A stretch of 64,000 nucleotides of DNA from Octopus sinensis (taxonomy: Eukaryota). Positions 5,427-61,062 of the stretch are shown in pieces. Made by a program: the position numbers and the translations under genes. The stretch covers positions 107,198,001 through 107,262,000 of the forward strand of contig NC_043002.1 of the NCBI RefSeq assembly GCF_006345805.1, written 5' to 3'. Below the pieces are notes generated by a model that was given only the letters and a program-made list of their open reading frames with translations, searched no databases and was not told the origin of the DNA. Numbering within the stretch: position 1 is the first letter of the stretch; the number at the start of each line of letters is the position of its first letter.

Positions 5427-6971
5427 TTAATACCTGGTTGACCCTCTTTTAGCATAAATTACTGTTTTTATATGGTTGGGCATTGAATTAACTAGTTTCT
5501 TGCAGGTGTTAGGCGCAATTTTACCCCATTCTTTTCTTAACTTTTGCTACAAATGCTCTTTATTTTTAGTGGTTGTATTCCTGATAGCTACACCAAAGGT
5601 TCTCCATAGGTGCTCGATCGGATTTAGATCGGGACTTTGAGCTGGCCAGTCCATGGGAACAATACCCTGTGTCTCAAGCCATTGATGAGTATTCTTTGCT
5701 GTATGACATGGAGCGTTGTCCTGTTGAAAGATATGGATATGGAAGCACTCCGTCGGTTACGACGACGAGGGTTCCGGTTGATCCGAATCAACGGAACAGC
5801 CTGCTCGTGAAATTAACGTGTAAGTGGCTGAGCACTCCACAGACACGTGCACCCTTAACGTAGTTCTCGGGGATATTCAGCGTGACACAGAGAGTGACAA
5901 GGCCGGCCCCTTGAAATACAGGTACAACAGAAACAGGAAGTAAGAGTGAGAGAAAGTTGTGGTGAAAGAGTACAGCAGGGATCACCACCATCCCCTGCCG
6001 GAGCCTCGTGGAGCTTTTAGGTGTTTTCGCTCAATAAACACTCACAACGCCCGGTCTGGGAATCGAAACCGCGATCCTATGACCGCGAGTCCGCTGCCCT
6101 AACCACTGGGCCATTGTGCCTCCACTTGTTGAAAGATAACACTGTTTTTGGACACTCCTGGATGCAATTTAGCAATTGGTGGCTATAAAACATCTGATAA
6201 CATAGAAGTATAGGGAGCTGAATTCATCCTTCCCTGACGTAAAAATATCTCTCCAGGTCCTGTGGCAGACATGCAGGCCCACACCATGTTAGAACCGCTC
6301 CCATGTTTTAAGGTTGGTACCAGGCATTCAGCCTTAAATGCTTCCCCAAGACTGCGACGCATGAAAGTTGCACCAGATGTACCGAAAACCTGAGTAAAAA
6401 CATGAAAAATAATATTAGCTTTTTATTGGAAACCTTTTTTCATATATTTTAGGCAACAAACCAGTTACATTAAGTTTATATGTTGATTGAATACATGTAC
6501 TATCTTACTTCATAGTTACTTTAATCAGACCATTGCTCACTGGTCCAATTTGAGTGGTTCTTGGCCCACAGAAGACGTTTTTCCATATCCACTTCAGAAA
6601 CCCATGGCCTCTTCCTGGCTTTACAGCTTTTCAGACCGTACTCTACAAGCCTTCTTCAAACAGTTCTGGTTGGTATTTGTGAAGTACTTTGATTCGTTGA
6701 AGTCCGCACAAGGCTCCGACGGTGTTTTTCTCATGCTTCTGAGCGACTGACAGATGATGGATCTATCATCACGAGATGATGTAACCTTTTTTCTACCTGT
6801 TCTTTGTATTGTCTTCACATCTTTTGTCTCTCTGAAGTGGTTGAGAGTCGTTTGCACCGCACATCGAGAACGTTTCATCTTCTGAGCAATTTGCCTTTGA
6901 GACATTCCATTTTCATGATGAGCTACGATTTGACTTCGCTTACATTCACTCAACTCCCTTGTTTTAGGCAT
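5427..6971 (-). pseudogene. Tc1 DD34E transposase, disrupted by a stop, frameshifts and a SINE; one intron at 6390-6508
   Basis: N-terminal HTH MPKTRELSECKRSQIV..GMSQRQIA. First catalytic D in WSD*SNYE. Also KHGSGSNMVWACM, and FQQDNAPCH...WPAQSPDLNPIEHLW with 34 residues between D and E. C-terminus LVNSMP..AKRGSTRY*. Confidence 0.9.
5734..6126 (-). mobile_element. SINE H1/tail A inserted in the Tc1 transposase
   Basis: 12-bp TSD TGTTGAAAGATA at 5722-5733 and 6127-6138; near-identical to 1012-1401. Confidence 0.93.
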
Positions 6972-7271
6972 TTTACTGTTTATTAACTGTATCTACGAAG
7001 TATTTTAGCATAAAACTCTGAAATAATCAATGAAACATAAGTAAATTTTGGCCGTTGGTCTAGCTCATAATTGGTTGCATGTGTACAGTACAGTATAAAA
7101 CCAGTAAATGATGCTAAAGGAGGGTCAACTAGATATTAAAACCAATGTATATTGTGAAATATACCATAATCTACTATGGGCACGAGTTTCATTAACATTG
7201 AGATAGCAGAACCACAAAACATTGGGTTGACCTAATACTTTTGCCCAAGACTGTATATATATATATATATG

Positions 7272-8617: not shown

Positions 8618-9336
8618 ATAATATATACAGTGGACGCTGGAAAAAGTATAAGTATTTGTGAAGGAAATCTAATTCTCGGCGACAACTATGATTGTCACAC
8701 GCTGACGAGAGGTCAATACCTCGAAACTCGAGTCCGTGTGTATCATAAGTTGAAGACGGGAAGGATGACTTCCCTTTGCAAATACTGACAGGACACAGAA
8801 AGTGTGTCTATGGCCAGCTGGAGGAGTGTGTCCTCCTGGGGCTAAAAACTACAGTAGCATCCACCCTTAGGGGTAGCCATATTGAAATGGCAAATATACG
8901 TCACGATATATATATATATATATATATCTTCTGTATATAAAACTGAAATGCGTTTTTACCGCTTGGAACGCTTTCAATGCCACTACATCCCGTCCGATTC
9001 GCTCCAAAATTTACAGGGACATGTAGAATGAGGTGACGATGCTCGTGGGCTACCTTAGAAATCCCTAGCTTAAAAGGTGTGGTTGCTAGGGGCCATCTTC
9101 CTCACTCACGCTATTTCCTCCTTTCCCTCTCTTACTCCCCTTCATTAATAACTTTGAGAATGCCACTCCCGTTATTAATGTATTCCCCTCAACTCCCTTT
9201 CACTTTCCCCTTATGAGTTCGTCAGGCGGCTTTCTTTGATGTATCTCTTTGCATTCATAGGAGAATTATCATCGCTACCAAACAACACACAATCATGAGA
9301 ACAAATATTATGAATCAGATATTCTTGCGTTCATTT

Positions 9337-15416: not shown

Positions 15417-15459
15417 AGTGTAGGTGTGTTCTGAATATATATAATTGTGGACAATTGTG

Positions 15460-15960
15460 GGATCTTTTTCTTTTGAACGGCACTTTTCAACACAATTTCT
15501 AGTTAACTAAACACTTTAAAACTTCGTATACTGGTAGAATGTGTCAAAATAAAACATTTTTTTCTCTTGGCTTTATTGAGAAAATTGTAATTTGTTTGTT
15601 TAACGTAGTTTAATTTTTCGAATTTTAACCAATGAATCGCCTCTAATGAGCTAAAATCATTTGCTGCGTCTAAAACTGAGACAACACCCTGTCACTAACC
15701 CTAACCCTTACCCTAACCCTAACCCTAAATTTTTTTTTCTTAATTGTTAAATTAATTTAATTGTTACGCGTGTAAAAAAAACGAATTCATTGGTCAAAAT
15801 TCGAAAAATTAAACTACGTTAAACTCACAAATTACAATTTTCTCAAGAAAGCCAAGAGAAAAAAATGTTTTATTTCGACATCCTACCAGTATACGAAGTT
15901 TTAAAGTGTTTAGTTAACTAGAAGTTGTGTTGAAAACTGCCGTTCAAAAGGAAAAGATCC
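15460..15960. mobile_element. MITE with ~175-bp TIRs and an internal (CCCTAA)n tract; possibly Merlin-like
   Basis: GGATCTTTTTCTTTTGAACGGCA...TGCCGTTCAAAAGGAAAAGATCC; near-perfect 8-bp TSD CAATTGTG/CAGTTGTG. Confidence 0.85.
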
Positions 15961-16339
15961 CAGTTGTGGAAGTTGCACGGCAGGGGGAAAAAGAGATTTT
16001 AAAGCTTAATGAGAGGGAAAGAGAGAAGGAGGGAGAGAGAGAGAGTAAGAGAGAACTCTAAATACAAACGGAGTGAGAAACTGTATGTATGAGATAGTGT
16101 GAGTGGAGGAGGAGGGAACACTCACAACACACACACATTCTACATCTAGTCACAAATATGCTTGTAGAAATGTATACATACTCTCCTCCATATATGCACG
16201 TATACTGCGCATTGATTGCTGATGCAAAATTTGTACGACACACCACACACACACACACACCATATACATGTGTTCAATTGACAAGAAATACGACTCCAGA
16301 ATCATTTGGTTTATCTTCTTATTCTCTTTTCTCTTTTTT

Positions 16340-19120: not shown

Positions 19121-21910
19121 CTACAACTCATCTAAAGTGTATATATAATCAGGTGAAGTTTCGGCGGATTTCGGAAAGCATGAGGCCTTAAAAGATGCAG
19201 TGTCATGGCAGTCAACAACTGACGCAGGCAGTTTATTCCATGCTTCAAGCAACTCTGAGCGTGAAAAAATGTTTCCGAAAGTCATGGGAGCTGTATTGTT
19301 TCTGACTTTGTAGGCATGTCCACGTGTGTTAGACACATGGAGATCAAAAAGTGTTCAGTGTTGTTGTTGGTGAGGTGGTTGATAACTTTGTGGGTGTTTA
19401 CCAAGTCCGTCGCCAAACGCCGGAGCTTCAGTGAATCCATGCCCAGGGAAACAAGGCGCTCAGAATATGGTAGGTGTCTGATGGAGGGTATGCGTTTGGT
19501 TGCACGTCTCTGGACAGATTCCAGGAGGTCAATGTTCTGTGCAAGATAGGGGTTCCAAACTGATGATGCGAATTCCAAGTGTGGTCGTACCATAGCTGTA
19601 TACATTTTAAATAGATGGCTGGAGAGCGGCTAACAAAAGACCTGCTGAGTGATGCCAAGACACCCTCGGCCTTCCTGACAATCTTAGAGAATGCTTTGAC
19701 CAACGCAGATCACTGCTGACAGTGATGCCTAGGTCACGCTCGCAAGAGGATTTCTTGATATCAGTGTTGTGGAGGGAGTGTGTGAACGCAGGGTTTTTTC
19801 TCCCAAAATGCATGGTGGTACACTTGTCCACAGCCAGTTTCAGTTGCCAGTCTGTGATCCATTGCTGCATTGTGTCTAGGTCTGATTGCAGGAAAGAGTT
19901 GTAGACATCAGGATCTGTCCTCTTGATTTCAAGGTACAGCTTGATGTCGTCTGCATATTTCAATACTGTGGCATTCTTTAAATTGGCATCTATGTCGTTA
20001 ATGTATGCCACAAACAAGAGGGGGCCAAGGACAGATCCCTGTGGTACACCCGATGACATCTCATATGGTGTAGAGTGCTGTCCTAGAACTGTGACTACCT
20101 CCTTTCGGCTGAGGATGAAGGATTTCAACCAGTTAAAAAGGTCATCCCCCACACCCATTGCAGAGAGTTTCACCATAAGCCTTTTGTGTGGCACAGAGTT
20201 GAAAGCCTTAGCAAAGTCAAGGTAGACAACATCCACCCATGAGCCACTGTCAGTAATCTGAGTAATGTCCTCAAGGAACTCGACAAGCTGGTCACTGCAG
20301 CTGGAGTTAGGGACAAATCCATATTGTGAGGGTCGGATGAGACTGTGAGAGCTCCAGAAGTTCCAGAGTGTTTCTCTGACACACGATTCCATCAGTTTTG
20401 CAATACAGCTAGTGAGACTGACTGGGCGATAGTTGACAGGTGATGTGCGGTCGCCCTTTTTGAACAGAGGAATGACACTGGCAGTTTTCCACTGCTCCGG
20501 AGTAGCACCATTGTTGAGACAGTACTGGAAGAAAATAGAAAGCTGGTGTAAAAGGAAGTGCCTGCCACGTTTGAGAAGCAGGTATGTAACTCCATCGAGA
20601 CCAGGGGAGGCATAGTTGCGCTTATTTTGAAGGTGACGTCGCAGCATTGCAGGTGTAATTCCATAGTTGTTATGGAGTTTGCTGTTAGTGATGGTGAAGA
20701 TGGTACTTTTGACTTTCAACAGTGAATATGTTTGCATAGCACTCGGCAATGAGTTCTGCGCATTCTTGGGGTCGTCAGTGATCTGGTTTGTGTGAGGGTT
20801 GCGAAGAGGGCCCACTGGAGAGTGAGGTCTCTGCTTTGAGTGCACATATTTCCAGAAAACCTTGCTGTCAGGATTGGCTGCTATGCACTGTTCAAATTCC
20901 AGCACTGCTTTTTTTGTCACTTGCTTGAGATGGTTGGAGGATTTATTCCGCTTCTTCCTGTTGGTGTCTGATTTATGCAACCTGTATTCCCGTTCAGCAG
21001 TCCGACGTTCCCTCCTGGCAAGTCGGACCGCTGAAGTTTCCCAAATTGCCCTTTTGGGGCGGTTCTTCTTTTTTTGTTTACGTGGCACTGATGCTGCACA
21101 TGCTGCCCATATTGAGTCCAGGATACTCTGGAGTATAGTATTCACATCTCCAGAGTTGTATAGATTCACGCCAGTTTGGTGCTGTAGTTCAGTGTGGTAC
21201 AGGTTCCAATCTGCTCTCTTCCAATCGAAGGAAGCAGATTGGAGATGGTTCAGTTTTTGTTGCCCGCAAGAGCCAGATTGGCGATGATCATAGCATGATC
21301 AGAGTCACCTAGGTTCCTCTCCGTAGTGCAATTGATAACCGCTTCAGGAGTTGTGGTGAAGAGCAGGTCCAAGGTGTTGTCGCCTCTTGTGGAGAGGTGA
21401 CTACTTGTGACCAGTTTGAGTCCAGCACAAGCTCAACAAATCGTTTGCACTCTGTGGCCAATGGAAGGTCTCCCAATCGATCTCAGGATGATTGAAATCG
21501 CCTGCAATAAACACATAAGTGGCTGTTTTCCTGGCAGCAGCTCGGAGGACATTGCAAAGCTGTGTGTCCCGATGGTAACTTGGGGGACGATAAACAACGC
21601 CAAGCAGGAGTGTTGACATGGTCATACGCACGTCACAGAAAAAAACTTCTTCTTGTGATTCGTTCAAATCGGCACAAGGAATTACCAAAAAATTTGAACG
21701 AACGTAGACCATCACACCACCACCACGGCGGTTAGTGCGGTCCTTACGGAAGAGGTTGTACCCCGTAATGTTGAAAACCCCATCACAGAGTAAGGAATGC
21801 GCCCATGTTTCCGTGACAGTGATGAAGTCAGGGTCAACACTTCTGACGTAGACGTTGAACAAATGTATTTTGTTGCATAACTGCGAGCATTTAAGGACAA
21901 CAATTTGTAC
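19121..21910 (-). pseudogene. LINE ORF2 (APE endonuclease + RT), split by several frameshifts
   Basis: APE motifs LNARS, VTETW, RKDRTNRRGGGV, GVVYRPP, IAGDFNHP. RT motifs NYRPVSLTS, YLDFAKAF, SGVPQGSVLGPLLF, YADD. C-terminal VRPHLEFASSVWNP, typical of CR1. Confidence 0.93.
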
Positions 21911-21999
21911 CCTGCACGCAGTTTATGATGGTGTGTAGAGGATGGCAGGTTGTTCTGGCTTAGTTTCCCTGAGTTGCTGTAGTCTTTTTAGTTATTGTG

Positions 22000-30433: not shown

Positions 30434-31101
30434 GCTACCACCACTCTCTTGGCTCTCCTCTCTCACAAATCACATCTCACTCTCCACAGCTATTATTCAC
30501 TGCAACCACCCCCACATATATACTTTGTATCTCCACCTTTTACCCTATTCACTTCTTCGTCACTTCCACCAACCATTACATCATTAGATTCCCATTAAAA
30601 GCACCTTTCTACACAACTTCATACTTTTCTATTTCTCTCACTCCTACTAAACTTAGCAATTAATAAGATTTACCCAACATCTTCACTTTGTCTACATCTC
30701 CAATGTTTCTGTAGTCATCATCAGTGAAGGTACGTGGCTAAGTGGTTAAGACATTCAGCTCCCAGCAGTAAGGTTGTGAGTTCGATCTTGAATGGCATGT
30801 TGTCTCCTTGAGCATGACACTTTATTTTATAGAAAATTACTATTTGTAATCTGTTGTGTCTGGGGAGAGTCATTTTCTTTTTGTGCCTTACTATTTCTAA
30901 ATCTCATAATGAGAGATATTCAACAACAGTACTCTAGAGTACAGGTTGTTTGCCAACATAACATGGCAGTCCTGGTTTAGAATGAATGTTGCTGTAATTT
31001 AGCCCCAGGAGACATCGTCTCCAACTGGCTATATGACATGATTTGTGTCCTTATATTTTCAAACAAGGGAATCTAGCACCCCCACTCAACTCGAAACAAT
31101 A

Positions 31102-31146
31102 TCTGTCTATCGTGATTCCTGGGTTATTTCCCTTCATCAGCACAGA
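31102..31146 (-). ncRNA. Minimal type I hammerhead ribozyme motif, degenerate copy
   Basis: TCTGTG CTGATGA A GGG-AAATAA-CCC A GGAA T-CACG-A TA GACAGA; GAAA is changed to GGAA. Confidence 0.6.
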
Positions 31147-31502
31147 ATAATTGTTCGGCTAGAGGTGGCGCTGCCAATTCCTGTTTGAAATATATAGTTT
31201 TCAAAGTGACACTGATCTATTAATTAGAAAATCACTATTTGTAAATCTCCCAACAAGAGATATTCGGCAACAGTACTCTAGAGTAAAGGTTGTTTGCCAA
31301 CATAACATGACAGTCCTGGTTTAAGACGAATGTTACTGTAATTTAGCCCCAGGAGACATCGTTTCCAGCTGGCTATACGACACGATCTGTGTCCTTATAT
31401 TTTCGAACAAGGGCATTTAGCACCCCAACTCAATTCAACTATATTGAAAACTATATACTTCTAACAGGAATTTAGCAGCACCACCTCTAACCGAACAATT
31501 AT

Positions 31503-31547
31503 TCTGTGCTGAGGAAAGGAAATAACCTAGAAATCGTGATACACAGA
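31503..31547 (+). ncRNA. Minimal type I hammerhead ribozyme motif, intact core
   Basis: Stem I TCTGTG/CACAGA, core CTGAGGA, stem II AGG/CCT, GAAA, stem III T-CGTG-A, cleavage triplet AUA. Confidence 0.75.
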
Positions 31548-32760
31548 TATTGTTTTGTGCTGAGTGAGGGTGCTTAATGCCCTTGTTCGGAAATATAAGG
31601 ACACAGATCATGTTGTATAGCCAGCTGGAGACGATGTCTCCTGGAGTTAAATTACAGCAACATTCGTCCTAAACCAGGAGTGTCATGTTATGTTGACAGA
31701 CAATCTTTACGCTACTTTATTTTATGTTGCTCCAGTCCACTCAGCTGGCAAAAATGAGTTCTACCTGTATTTCAAAGGGCCAGCCTTGTCACACTCTGTC
31801 GTGTTGAATCAACCTGAGAACTATGTTAAGGATGTGTGTGTCTAGGAGCGCTCAGCCACTTCGGCTGGAACCCTTGTCATTGTAAGTGATGGAGTACCAA
31901 TATAATATGTAATGTAAGATACCCTTATCACTTTAACTTTCACATTTTCATGCTTGCATGAGTTGATGAAATTCATGGAGACAGATTTTGTAGGGCCAGA
32001 TGCCCTTTTGTCCTGCCAGCAACCCCTCACCCATTTCTAACTGTCACCTGTGGCTGGACATGTTTTCATGGAAGATTGAAAATGAACACCACTACTTGTG
32101 TGATGGTGATGCACATTTACAAGCATTGTGTTGCATCAAGACGACACACACACACATTTTGGCACTCTGTTGGTTATGACGATGAGGGTTCCAGCTGATC
32201 CAATCAACAGGACAGCCTGTTTGTGAAATTAATGCACGAGAGGTGGAGCACTCTACAGACAAGTGAACCGTTACATAGTTACGGGGACATAAACACATCA
32301 ACTCCAGTTGTCAAGTGGTGTTAGGGGACAAACTCAAAGATACACACACACACACACACAACAGGCTTCTTTCCACTCACAAGGCTTTGGTCAACCCGAA
32401 GCTATAGTAGAAGACACTTGCCCAAGGTGTCATGCAGTGGGACTGAACCCGGAACCATGTGGTTGGGAAACAAACTTCTTACTACCACTAGTGCAGCTAG
32501 AGTGTCTACCGCCTGGGGTGGCCCTTCCGTTTGCCACCCCTGAACCTCACACTATACTTTATACACACTTTTGACAAGTTGTGGTGCACCTGAGCATAAT
32601 TTCATTATATATTATAAAAAACAAGGCGGCGAGCTGGCAGAACCGTTAGCACACCGGGTGACATGCTTAGCGGTGTTTCGTCTGCTGTTATGTTCTGAGT
32701 TCAGCCAAGGAGAAATTTCAGCGGACTTTTGAAAATGACAAAAAAAAAATCTGCAACCAT

Positions 32761-33165: not shown

Positions 33166-33947
33166 TTGTAGCAAAGGCTAAGGAAGATCCATTGATCATT
33201 TACACAAAGAGTTACTGATTTGTAAAACATTTTAACAACTCAGGTTTTAGTGTGAAACAGCTGCACTATCAAGCTACAGTGGTTCACAATTATGCTGCTC
33301 TACTTAGCAAAATCAGCCTTCGAAGATGTACAGTAAATGTATTTATAAATATATTACATATCTACAGATGTGCGTACATACCTGCCTGCATGCATATATA
33401 CATATGTGCATACATGCTTGTGTACATGTGTAGTTACATGTGAAGTAGTAAGATAGAAACTGTGCGTGGATGTGTGGGTGTGTAAAAGTAAGATAGAGGA
33501 TAAGTATGTGTATGCAAAATAATAAGATAAAGACTGTATGAAAGGGAGACAGATATACAGGTAGGTTTAGAAAGAGTTCACCTTGGTGTAGGTAGGTTAT
33601 TTTGCAATGTTTCTGGATTTGATCTCGAAACCTGGCCCTAGAACATCGGTTTTCTTTAAACATACGTACATATATACATACATACATGCATGCACTGATA
33701 CATACACACATGCATGCACATATATATACAGGCATGCACATACACATACATGCATGTACACCTACATACATATATGCAAACTGAAACTAGGTGTTTGTCT
33801 TCTTGGGACCCAAGTTTCACACCTACTTTCTTCAGTTTTACCTGAAGATCTCAACAAGCATGAATCTATAGTTCTATATTTAAGAGATTAGGAATTATGT
33901 ACAATATTTACATTTGACGGATATTTGTCCTCATCTTGTTTGTTGTT

Positions 33948-33993
33948 AACACAACGTTTCGGCTGATATACCCTCCAGCCTTCATCAGGTGTC
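33948..33993 (-). ncRNA. Minimal type I hammerhead ribozyme motif
   Basis: GACAC CTGATGA A GGCTG-GAGGGTATAT-CAGCC GAAA CG T T GTGTT; stem III is reduced to the palindrome AACGTT. Confidence 0.75.
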
Positions 33994-34235
33994 TTGGGCA
34001 AATTTTGAAACTGGGTTCTCATTCCTAAGGTATTTTTCAATGTTGTTGTTATAATTATTATTATTCAGGTCACTGCCTGGAATCGAACTTGGAATCTTGG
34101 GGTTAGTAGCCTGCGCTCTTAACCACTACGCGCCATATGCCCATGAGTTCAATTCCAGGCAGTGACCTGAATAATAATAATAATAACTTTGAAAAATACC
34201 TCAGGAATGAGAACCCAGGTTCGAAATTTCCCCAA

Positions 34236-34281
34236 GACATCTGATGAAGGCTGGAGGGTATATCAGCCGAAACATTGTTAA
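34236..34281 (+). ncRNA. Hammerhead motif, degenerate second copy
   Basis: CTGATGA A GGCTG..CAGCC GAAAC is intact; stems I and III are damaged (CG>CA, 2-nt deletion). Confidence 0.55.
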
Positions 34282-34464
34282 CAACAAACAAGATGAGGAC
34301 AAATATCCATCAAATGTAAATAATGTAAATAATGTATCATGAAATTAGTTGTGAGATAAACTCTCAGTTTCAATAAAAAAAGTCATATCCCCTGTATGTA
34401 TTGAGTACTCCTTTCTCATTCATTCAATATAAAGCAATGTATTTATGTGTGTGTGTGTTTGTGT

Positions 34465-47457: not shown

Positions 47458-47557
47458 NNNNNNNNNNNNNNNNNNNNNNNNNNNNNNNNNNNNNNNNNNN
47501 NNNNNNNNNNNNNNNNNNNNNNNNNNNNNNNNNNNNNNNNNNNNNNNNNNNNNNNNN
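47458..47557. other. Assembly gap (100 N)
   Basis: Run of N. Confidence 1.
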
Positions 47558-54016: not shown

Positions 54017-54360
54017 CTTTATAATGTAACACATTCACCGGTAAAATTTCCACTTATTTCTTATTTTTATTGTCCTAAAATTTTTGTTGCATCTTGCAAC
54101 CTTTCCAATAATCTTGACTCTCAAGACTATTGAAAAGGTTGCAAGACGCAACAAAAATTTTAGGACAATAAAAATAAAAAATAAGTGGAAATTTCACCAG
54201 TGAGTGTGTTACATTATAAGGCACAAAAAGAAAATGACTCTCCCCAGACACAACAGAATATGCTTCAACACACAAACTCATATAAAGAATCTTGCAAACC
54301 AAATCCAAAAACGAAATATAACTGCACTAGTGCTGTTATATTTCGTCTTTGGATTTGATT
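54017..54360. mobile_element. Foldback (Penelope pLTR-like) element with a degenerate hammerhead in each arm
   Basis: ~100-bp arms centred at ~54119; CTA TTGAAAA G GTTGC-AAGAC-GCAAC aAAA AT T T TAG; extra hairpin at 54301-54356. Confidence 0.65.
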
Positions 54361-59139: not shown

Positions 59140-60660
59140 CATCGTTTCAATGTTTGCTTCACCATACATGGACAGATGGGCATGTCTTCTCCAGCATCCC
59201 TATCACTAATCTTCACACTCCCTTGTCATCTCCATGGTGTCAATATCCTGGTTTTCATCACTTTCTTTCTTGTCTTCCAAGGTCTCCTGCTTCAACAGGG
59301 ACCATCCTCTTTGAGTGCCCTGTACTATTTCATGCAGCTATCATCCTCCATACAATCACTTGTACAGCCTTTTCTCTCATTACATCTTAAATCCAGTTTT
59401 CATTCCCGCTTCTTTATGCCCACTAACATTGTACATCCAGCTGATCATGTTCACTTCATTTCTTTCTAGTCTTCACAACTCTAACTTATTAGCTTACCTG
59501 TGATTCCAGTACACCTCTTCTGCATCAATACGTTACACTGAGTACACCATACAGAATTTCTACAGAAAATTGTCTTTCCTACTTACTAAAACTTTAGTCT
59601 TCACTAAAGAATATTAGAGAGGTGATGGTAGTAAACCTGGAAAGTTATGGTAGATAATGTGAGGGGTTGAATAATGCTATCCCTTGTTACACAGGTAGAA
59701 TAGTACAGTGGATAGGAAAGAGGATGAGTGAGAGGTCAGATGGTAGCATAGGGGTCAGTTGATGGAAATATATATTTATTGGGTCTCTCGCCAATTCTTA
59801 TATATCCCAACCTCCATGATTGCCATCAATATTCTAATCACAGTTTTTGCCATTATTGCACTGACAGGTATGTCTTTTCTTGCTGTCAATCTCACCAATT
59901 GTCATCTCCTGTGAAGTTCAGTTTCTTGAGATTAATCATCATCTCATCAAATCTCATGTTTTTCTAGATCTACCTCATACCCAGGCCCCATCTACTCGAA
60001 ATGCTCAGTATATGTTTACACTACTGTGCTGGGCACCCTCCATCTGCATCACATACCTCTATTAACACCGTCTTCTCTCTTTCATATTTTGGTTCTTATT
60101 CTGATTATTCCCTCAGTTTATTCATGGACCCCAATATTACAGAATATGTTCACTTCATGTTGTTTTTCTTATCACTTTGATCACTTCACTTTGACCGACC
60201 AGTCCGTCAGGCGTCCATTTGACACCGCTGGTCACAGCACGCTGTCCACTCCTCTCTGGATCGCGCCTTTCTCATCCACGTGATCCCAATCGTCTTCTTG
60301 AAATCGTCACTCCACCGTCGTGGAGGTCTTCCGGGTGGTCTTTTCCGCTCACGCGGGTACCACTCAACTACTGCGTGCGTCCACCGATTATCGGTGAACC
60401 GGGCGACGTGTCCAGCCCATCTATACTTGCTGCTTCTATACTTTTTCTTATAGCTGTCACAATTGTTCCATATTCAAGGCCTTCACCTCACTACCACACA
60501 GCATTACACAGTCAGCTCTTCAACCTGAGAGACGTTCGGGGAGACATTGCTTCTGTTATCAGAAGAGGCCAATATCTTCCTAAACCATTCTTACTCTGGT
60601 TGCTCTGCATACAGTACACCCACCTCCTTTGCTCATTACAACAGCTAAGTAACAAATATT
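59140..60660 (-). mobile_element. Degraded RTE ORF relics (~59140-59480, ~59900-60170, ~60440-60660)
   Basis: Fragments such as RLERNEVNMISWMYNVS, GRSRKT, CYL..SKGGGC, PLLITE and MLCGSE; stops present. Confidence 0.6.
60171..60435 (-). mobile_element. Young RTE-clade LINE 3' end
   Basis: KYRWAGHVARFTDNRWTHAVVEWYPRERKRPPGRPPRRWSDDF...MDA*, then a GTCAAAGTGAAGTGATCAAAGTGAT tail. Confidence 0.88.
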
Positions 60661-60665
60661 GATAT

Positions 60666-61050
60666 GTAGTAAAGATTGTTTGCCAACATAACATGGCAGT
60701 CCTGGTTTAGGACTAATGTTGCTGTAATTTAGCCCCAGGAGACATCGTCTCCAGCTGGCTATATGACACGATCTGTGTCCTTATATTTTCGAACAAAGGA
60801 ATCTAACCTCTTCTGATAACAGATGCAATGTTTCCCTGAACTTCTCTCAGGCTGAAGAGCTGATTGTTCGAAAATATAAGGACGCAGATTGTGTTGTATA
60901 GCCAGCTGGAGACGATGTTTCCTGGGGCTAAAATTACAGCGACATTAGTCCTAAATCAGGACTGCCATGTCATGTTGGCAAACAATCTTTACTACAAAGT
61001 ACAGTTGCTGAATATCTCTTGTTGCGAGATTTTAAAAATAGTAATTTTCT
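60666..61050. mobile_element. Second insertion of the 30.8-kb Penelope/retrozyme-like family (foldback, no ribozyme retained)
   Basis: 12-bp TSD AAATATTGATAT (60654-60665, 61051-61062); same terminus AAATAGTAATTTTCT. Confidence 0.82.
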
Positions 61051-61062
61051 AAATATTGATAT

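Follow-up and report, generated by a model that had tools for sequence, protein, structure and literature searches.

A likely Penelope-type insertion in Octopus sinensis, probably joined through an inverted copy of its own flank

In the 64-kb stretch of Octopus sinensis DNA analysed here (the window), a 385-bp unit at 60666-61050 is built from two truncated arms of a single repeat family, which stand head to head and enclose a reversed copy of flanking DNA. The unit is likely a non-autonomous Penelope-type retroelement insertion, and sequence comparison gives good support to the spacer having been copied from local DNA. We consider it probable that the copying took place during integration, when one cDNA end switched onto the flank as the target was closed by joining two cDNAs.

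Aligned without gaps to the reverse complement of 60512-60568, the spacer (60807-60863) is identical at 52 of 57 positions, and blastn widened the match to 60807-60867 against 60568-60508 (55/61, E 1.5e-19). The local alignment of spacer and source scores 89, a score that none of 2000 doublet shuffles attained (maximum 30), and when the rest of the window was cut into 63 tiles of 1 kb, the highest score against the spacer was 27. Beyond this pair, no second copy was found within the 64-kb window. These values, 89 against at most 30 in shuffled sequence, bear out a sequence-only reading of this DNA, which had described the spacer as the reverse complement of the upstream flank. The right end of the source lies 85 bp to the left of the left duplication and 97 bp to the left of the element, and two of the five differences between spacer and source fall at CpG sites of the source.

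Exact 12-bp duplications flank the unit, at 60654-60665 and 61051-61062; a duplication of at least 12 bp arose by chance in 5 of 5000 random position pairs placed 385 bp apart with 5 bp of slack at each end. The short arm, whose RNA sense is the minus strand, pairs with the long arm (60666-60796 against 60864-60995) through 123 matches, 8 mismatches and 1 gap. The last 10 nt of the short arm (60797-60806) are element sequence without a counterpart in the long arm, identical at 8/10 positions to unit 1 of a second family member at 30.8 kb and at 6/10 and 5/10 to the other two arms. The long arm, 187 nt including its tail (60864-61050), carries 55 nt that the short arm lacks and that recur in both tandem units of the 30.8-kb copy. 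Since each arm has private sequence, neither finished arm copies the other, unless it was trimmed after copying, and this fits two separately primed cDNAs. The arms halt at 141 and 187 nt, 31 and 40 nt before the predicted hammerhead cut, and their ends fall at most 10 nt apart; no hammerhead was found in this copy, both arms ending before the ribozyme. The label ‘foldback’ applied by the earlier reading is therefore misleading, the arms being asymmetric, each with element sequence missing from the other. A simple one-cDNA foldback was rejected on the same private sequence. A MITE or DNA foldback transposon was rejected as well, as the arms are not terminal inverted repeats (the 55-nt tail stands at one end) and the family occurs as tandems with hammerheads.

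Table 1. Features of the focal unit, its flank and the second family member (window coordinates).
Feature	Position	Strand	Basis or remark
Source of captured sequence	60508..60568, core 60512-60568	+	blastn, alignment
Spacer, 57 bp	60807..60863	-	reverse complement of 60512-60568, 52/57
Host sequence of insertion, decayed fragment	60474..60653	-	putative RTE-LINE-like motifs
Left 12-bp target-site duplication, AT-rich	60654..60665	+	
Right 12-bp target-site duplication	61051..61062	+	3′ end of SINE-like repeat directly after
Short arm, 141 nt	60666..60806	-	5′-truncated repeat unit; begins at putative RT start site 1
Long arm core, 132 nt	60864..60995	+	inverted relative to short arm
Long-arm tail, 55 nt	60996..61050	+	absent from short arm; terminates at putative RT start site 2
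Second family member	30831..31713	.	344-bp-unit partial tandem and inverted truncated arm 31444-31713
Type I hammerhead-like motif, inverted arm of 30.8-kb copy	31504..31546	+	motif scan, stem I check
Type I hammerhead-like motif, tandem unit 1 of 30.8-kb copy	31103..31145	-	one core base decayed

The stretch into which the unit inserted (60474-60653) bears motifs that resemble those of an RTE LINE and may be a decayed fragment of one. When the source was compared with an RTE protein, one 9-residue stretch aligned (E 6.2), and a frameshift-aware alignment of the source stretch with the named RTE protein scored 28, which 46 of 150 shuffles equalled or bettered. The source stretch matched no Pfam family and gave no match in a word-index search with stops translated to X; phmmer returned 1 match. 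Beside the source, on the minus strand, 60210-60443 is the open 3′ end of an RTE-type LINE, a younger fragment; its protein shares 77% identity with a Scleropages formosus (fish) entry in UniRef, the RTE protein used in the alignments of the source. A fish-like RTE in invertebrate DNA would hint at horizontal transfer.

Exact duplications of 12 bp also bound the second family member, at 30819-30830 and 31714-31725. Its units repeat every 344 bp, a period taken from a single partial tandem, and they have a GC of 38% and lack an open frame. The outer ends fall at the same family positions in the two elements, one at site 1 and the other 55 nt further, at site 2. Earlier claims of equal 12-bp duplications in the two copies and of a common terminus were thus confirmed, the latter for both ends and not one. 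A search of the window for an empty site among SINE copies found no other match to the left flank of the 30.8-kb copy. A 28-nt family motif had 0 exact matches in bacterial and archaeal genomes, plasmids and phages, non-eukaryotic collections that are uninformative on the family. Inside the tail of the 30.8-kb copy, at 30850-30888, sits a 39-bp piece of a second Penelope-like family (43/44 to 54217-54260), bounded by two near-identical 13-mers (12/13); it may be a very small insertion of tail sequence only, the 13-mers being its duplication, or else the product of a template switch between element RNAs.

In the hammerhead-like motifs of the 30.8-kb copy the core, both stems (I and II) and helix III, which is short and near-palindromic, are present but decayed, with folding z of -1.3 and -2.7 and minimum-energy folds that differ from the catalytic fold. 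Rfam at gathering thresholds gave 0 matches over the whole window, and at E up to 5 over 30500-32000 it gave 5 chance-level matches, the hammerhead not among them. The motifs set the RNA sense, so the outer ends of each element would be RNA 3′ ends and the truncated 5′ ends would be central. The predicted hammerhead cut is 172 nt from start site 1. Of the four cDNA ends in the family, three fail to reach it by about 5, 31 and 40 nt, and the fourth runs about 97 nt past it, a post hoc comparison of four points. Elsewhere in the window, 8697-8905 holds a remoter relative of the family (about 77-80% over 57-75 bp) that ends in an (AT)n tract and includes a well-formed hammerhead-like motif at 8697-8739.

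The family combines the genomic form of a retrozyme with the insertion signature of a Penelope-like element (PLE), and it is not autonomous. Non-LTR retrozymes are described as tandems of non-coding monomers, 170-400 nt long, that carry type I hammerheads (PMC7229834), and our family has a non-coding, low-GC tandem monomer within about that range. The resemblance to the metazoan non-LTR retrozymes described there covers the 344-bp tandem, the GC of 38%, the motif like a type I hammerhead, the absence of coding sequence and the short palindromic helix III. In contrast, the 60.7-kb copy is truncated before the ribozyme, and the inverted arm, the tail and the duplication have no counterpart in the retrozyme descriptions of that paper that we drew on. 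The earlier label ‘retrozyme’ suits the ORF-less monomer and its hammerhead-like motif but not the insertion anatomy, which is Penelope-like.

Accounts of PLE anatomy include partial tandems, an inverted 5′-truncated copy and a one-sided tail of 30-40 bp (PMC8557442, PMC3846280), inverted pLTRs with 8-10 bp duplications (PMC3846280) and hammerheads in Penelope-like repeats (PMC4209133). The family has partial tandem and inverted 5′-truncated repeats, a tail at one end, a short AT-rich duplication and a hammerhead motif, the last resting on the two motifs that the scan found at 30.8 kb, whereas the 60.7-kb copy has none. As in endonuclease-containing elements of the Penelope/Poseidon type, the partial tandem with an inverted 5′-truncated copy comes with a one-end extension and two fixed 3′ termini, the duplication is short and AT-rich, and the hammerhead lies inside the repeat; unlike them, the family is ORF-less and its tail measures 55 nt rather than 30-40. 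The purified Poseidon protein of an anole cuts and extends both strands of AT-rich DNA and initiates at two internal positions of the RNA, which delimit the tail (PMC11167929). Octopus genomes are reported to contain recently active Penelope-like families (PMC13282606), and very short truncated Penelope insertions are ordinary, with a median of 128 bp given for Chlamydomonas (PMC9977147). No ORF for a PLE-type RT or GIY-YIG endonuclease was found in either copy or among the 69 window ORFs of at least 110 aa. With no autonomous Penelope ORF found in the window, we infer the enzyme, and the family is at most a non-autonomous PLE derivative or passenger.

A head-to-head insertion with private arm sequence and a flank-copied bridge suggests that two cDNAs were primed separately and joined at the site. 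Under the sequence of events that we think probable, a Penelope-like GIY-YIG endonuclease would nick both AT-rich strands 12 nt apart, as the observed 12-bp duplication suggests. Both 3′ ends would prime cDNA synthesis, starting at two sites of the RNA separated by 55 nt, in keeping with one tailed and one tailless arm and with the same termini at 30.8 kb. The two cDNAs would stop at the observed arm lengths of 141 and 187 nt. A single-stranded cDNA end could then pair by 2-3 nt with the left flank and copy 57 nt; most simply, about 160 nt would be resected or unwound and the short-arm cDNA would then fold back onto the strand it belongs to, and such a snap-back would give the observed inverted orientation. 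A mirror route, with the long-arm cDNA invading the left flank, would have the same sequence outcome. The new end would finally anneal to the other cDNA through a 3-nt microhomology, and the gap would be filled.

At the short-arm junction one C is common to element and source; the preceding position holds A in the focal copy but G in the source and in each of the three arms at 30.8 kb, so that a 2-nt overlap was likely the original state. At the long-arm junction TGT, a triplet present at 3% of window positions, is common to the source (60508-60510) and the long arm after one mismatch. The microhomologies thus amount to 1-2 nt and 3 nt, each next to a mismatch or later mutation. DNA folding of 60490-60812 gave no pre-formed hairpin linking the short-arm end to the source.

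As to the polymerase, a host repair enzyme is favoured at slightly better than even chances, the RT of the element keeps a substantial minority share, and a small remainder goes to others. The insert is the reverse complement of same-side flank, and snap-back synthesis is described as yielding reverse-complement inserts (PMC5728401, PMC5068794). Snap-back in alternative end joining, as presented in the same papers, uses primers of 1-4 nt, mostly within 10-25 nt, and leaves inserts of about 10 nt. Inserts attributed there to SD-MMEJ or polymerase theta resemble ours in being reverse-complement copies of flank and perhaps in being primed and resolved by microhomologies of 1-4 nt, but ours is longer and comes from farther away: the copied 57 nt were 238 nt away along the strand from the cDNA end. 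Polymerase theta is therefore not a clean fit, and RT or strand invasion may have done the copying.

The age of the capture can be set against that of the insertion. Spacer and source differ at 5/57 positions (8.8%, 95% interval 2.9-19.3%) and arm and arm at 8/131 (6.1%, 95% interval 2.7-11.7%); the two do not differ detectably (Fisher p 0.54), the intervals being wide and the test weak. This comparison of sequences gives no sign, by a weak test, that the capture is younger than the insertion. The two focal arms differ by 6.3% from each other and by 5.5-13.4% from the 30.8-kb arms, with the short arm 5.5% from one unit, and one private base in 127 columns is common to both. As the focal arms are not clearly closer to each other than to the 30.8-kb arms, arm divergence is a weak clock.

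The earlier proposal of a template switch onto local DNA during integration holds up in its local part, since the flank is the sole local match, at 8.8% divergence and with probable short microhomology at both junctions. Its timing is likely, but repair of the centre soon after insertion would yield an identical sequence, and the polymerase is not readable from sequence. In such a history a near-perfect head-to-head palindrome came first, and a later break at its centre was repaired with 57 nt copied from the resected flank, leaving a stabilising spacer. Arm ends at most 10 nt apart are what a centre break would give, and long palindromes are unstable. Moreover, local foldback inversions form at yeast breaks without a retroelement, according to PMC11724301. 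We nevertheless judge this history unlikely, as run-off near the hammerhead cut could also produce near-equal arm ends, at least 300 nt of single-stranded DNA would be needed against about 160, and the element at 54 kb retains a 98-bp palindrome with a 5-nt loop. Spacer divergence is, in addition, not below arm divergence, so that any such event must have been early.

The template might alternatively have been RNA, the RT of the element having switched from its own RNA to a nascent transcript of the target locus. RTs do jump from one RNA template to another, the 30.8-kb tail contains a fragment from a different Penelope-like family, and the sequence outcome would be identical; however, this route would require transcription of the source stretch and an R-loop at the nick, and the captured stretch has no splice or poly(A) sign, all of which makes it highly improbable. 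A shade less probable again is that the spacer derives from a different copy of the LINE-like family in the flank, through its RNA or DNA, and matches its neighbour by coincidence. The source does read like a decayed RTE fragment, so further genomic copies are possible, but no second copy was found in the 64 kb, so that chance adjacency, taken as about 200 bp in 64 kb or less, is estimated at a few per thousand. Spacer and source also have a common in-frame stop in an RT reading frame, which speaks against this origin, with the provisos that the frame is putative and the stop may reflect independent CpG decay. Inverted PLE structures are noted to trouble assemblies (PMC8557442), and a hairpin or chimeric read could in principle have produced the unit. 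Such an assembly or library artefact predicts identical copies, whereas the spacer differs at 5/57 positions, two of these at source CpG sites, and the arms at 8/131 plus a gap, and the duplications and termini match those of an independent copy. The chance of an artefact is therefore negligible, and we treat a read or assembly artefact as excluded by the diverged copies. Copying by a cDNA end during joining remains the reading that we prefer.

Self-comparison of the window gave 16 local inverted matches, three of which, besides the focal unit, are head-to-head elements (30.8, 33.9 and 54.0 kb). In the first two of these the centre had no match to its own flanks, and the loop at 54 kb is only 5 nt long, so that local capture is seen in one of four head-to-head elements in the window. 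The survey of other copies for spacers matching their own flanks that the sequence-only reading had proposed thus came out negative within the window (0/3), and its ‘footprint of how these elements insert’ comes down to a single event, without a parallel in the three other inverted elements of the window. The element at 33894-34333 belongs to a different family, has hammerhead-like motifs in both arms and a 56-bp centre without a match to its own flanks; that at 54019-54360 has 98-bp arms around its loop and a one-sided extension, and a further 64-bp palindrome lies at 54297-54360. Among other repeats of the window are a minus-strand LINE remnant at 19282-21922 with apurinic endonuclease and RT domains (Pfam PF03372, PF00078), 180-bp inverted repeats (94%) around a short telomere-like (TAACCC)n tract at 15458-15962, and a 123-aa minus-strand frame at 6621-6992 that presumably resembles the N-terminal DNA-binding part of a Tc1-type transposase. 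The SINE-like repeats of the window and its load of microsatellites are like those of octopus genomes. An assembly gap of 100 N occupies 47458-47557.

Retroelements of other classes offer precedents. An R2 cDNA end is described as snapping back onto nearby rDNA and copying it (PMC11371274). For L1, 22 templated insertions are reported among about 3,600, with templates shorter than 250 bp and within 15 bp of the site (10.1101/2024.08.27.596794), and PMC11702581 provides a further precedent for L1 cDNA ends copying nearby DNA. Our unit is like the L1 templated insertions and twin priming of these reports in that less than 250 bp of local DNA was copied, the duplications were retained and both target ends would have primed cDNA. 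It differs in that the template lies 85 bp from the site rather than, as is typical there, within 15 bp, and in that the two cDNAs would come from nearly one part of the RNA, whereas in L1 twin priming they come from different parts. With R2 snap-back as described it would share a cDNA 3′ end that primes on nearby target and opposite-strand sequence beside the insert; R2, however, joins one cDNA to flank, while the copied piece here would bridge two cDNAs. Host DNA captured between Penelope pLTRs is known from rotifers (PMC3846280), with an origin that the account gives as distant or leaves unstated, whereas here it is the adjacent flank; the rotifer junctions of that account are palindromic, unlike the flank-derived spacer. 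Our searches of the open-access literature found no Penelope or retrozyme junction reported to contain an inverted spacer derived from the flank, an absence that is weak evidence. Scars of this kind are known from L1 and R2, and the spacer appears to be one in a class of elements that has received less study.

The finish of PLE integration and the origin of the inverted repeats are described as unresolved (PMC8557442, in its treatment of these structures; PMC11167929), and a self-priming model derives Penelope inverted repeats from palindromic junctions (PMC3846280, as outlined there). Penelope enzymes have been put forward as mobilisers of retrozymes, as a hypothesis only (PMC7229834). A tentative extension, which we hold to be unlikely, is that Penelope machinery inserts the hammerhead retrozymes of this genome, both target strands priming on RNA cut by the ribozyme and host repair joining the products; near the hammerhead cut the two cDNAs would then have run off. 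If this extension is true, the spacer could be made only at the target, which would argue against the self-priming hairpin model. A single locus is slight proof, but it points to a genome-wide test in repeat-rich invertebrate assemblies, which would bear on how Penelope-type inverted insertions are closed and on whether retrozymes ride on Penelope enzymes. Should the extension be true, the last step of Penelope integration would stand recorded in the genome, in the centre spacers of copies numbering thousands.
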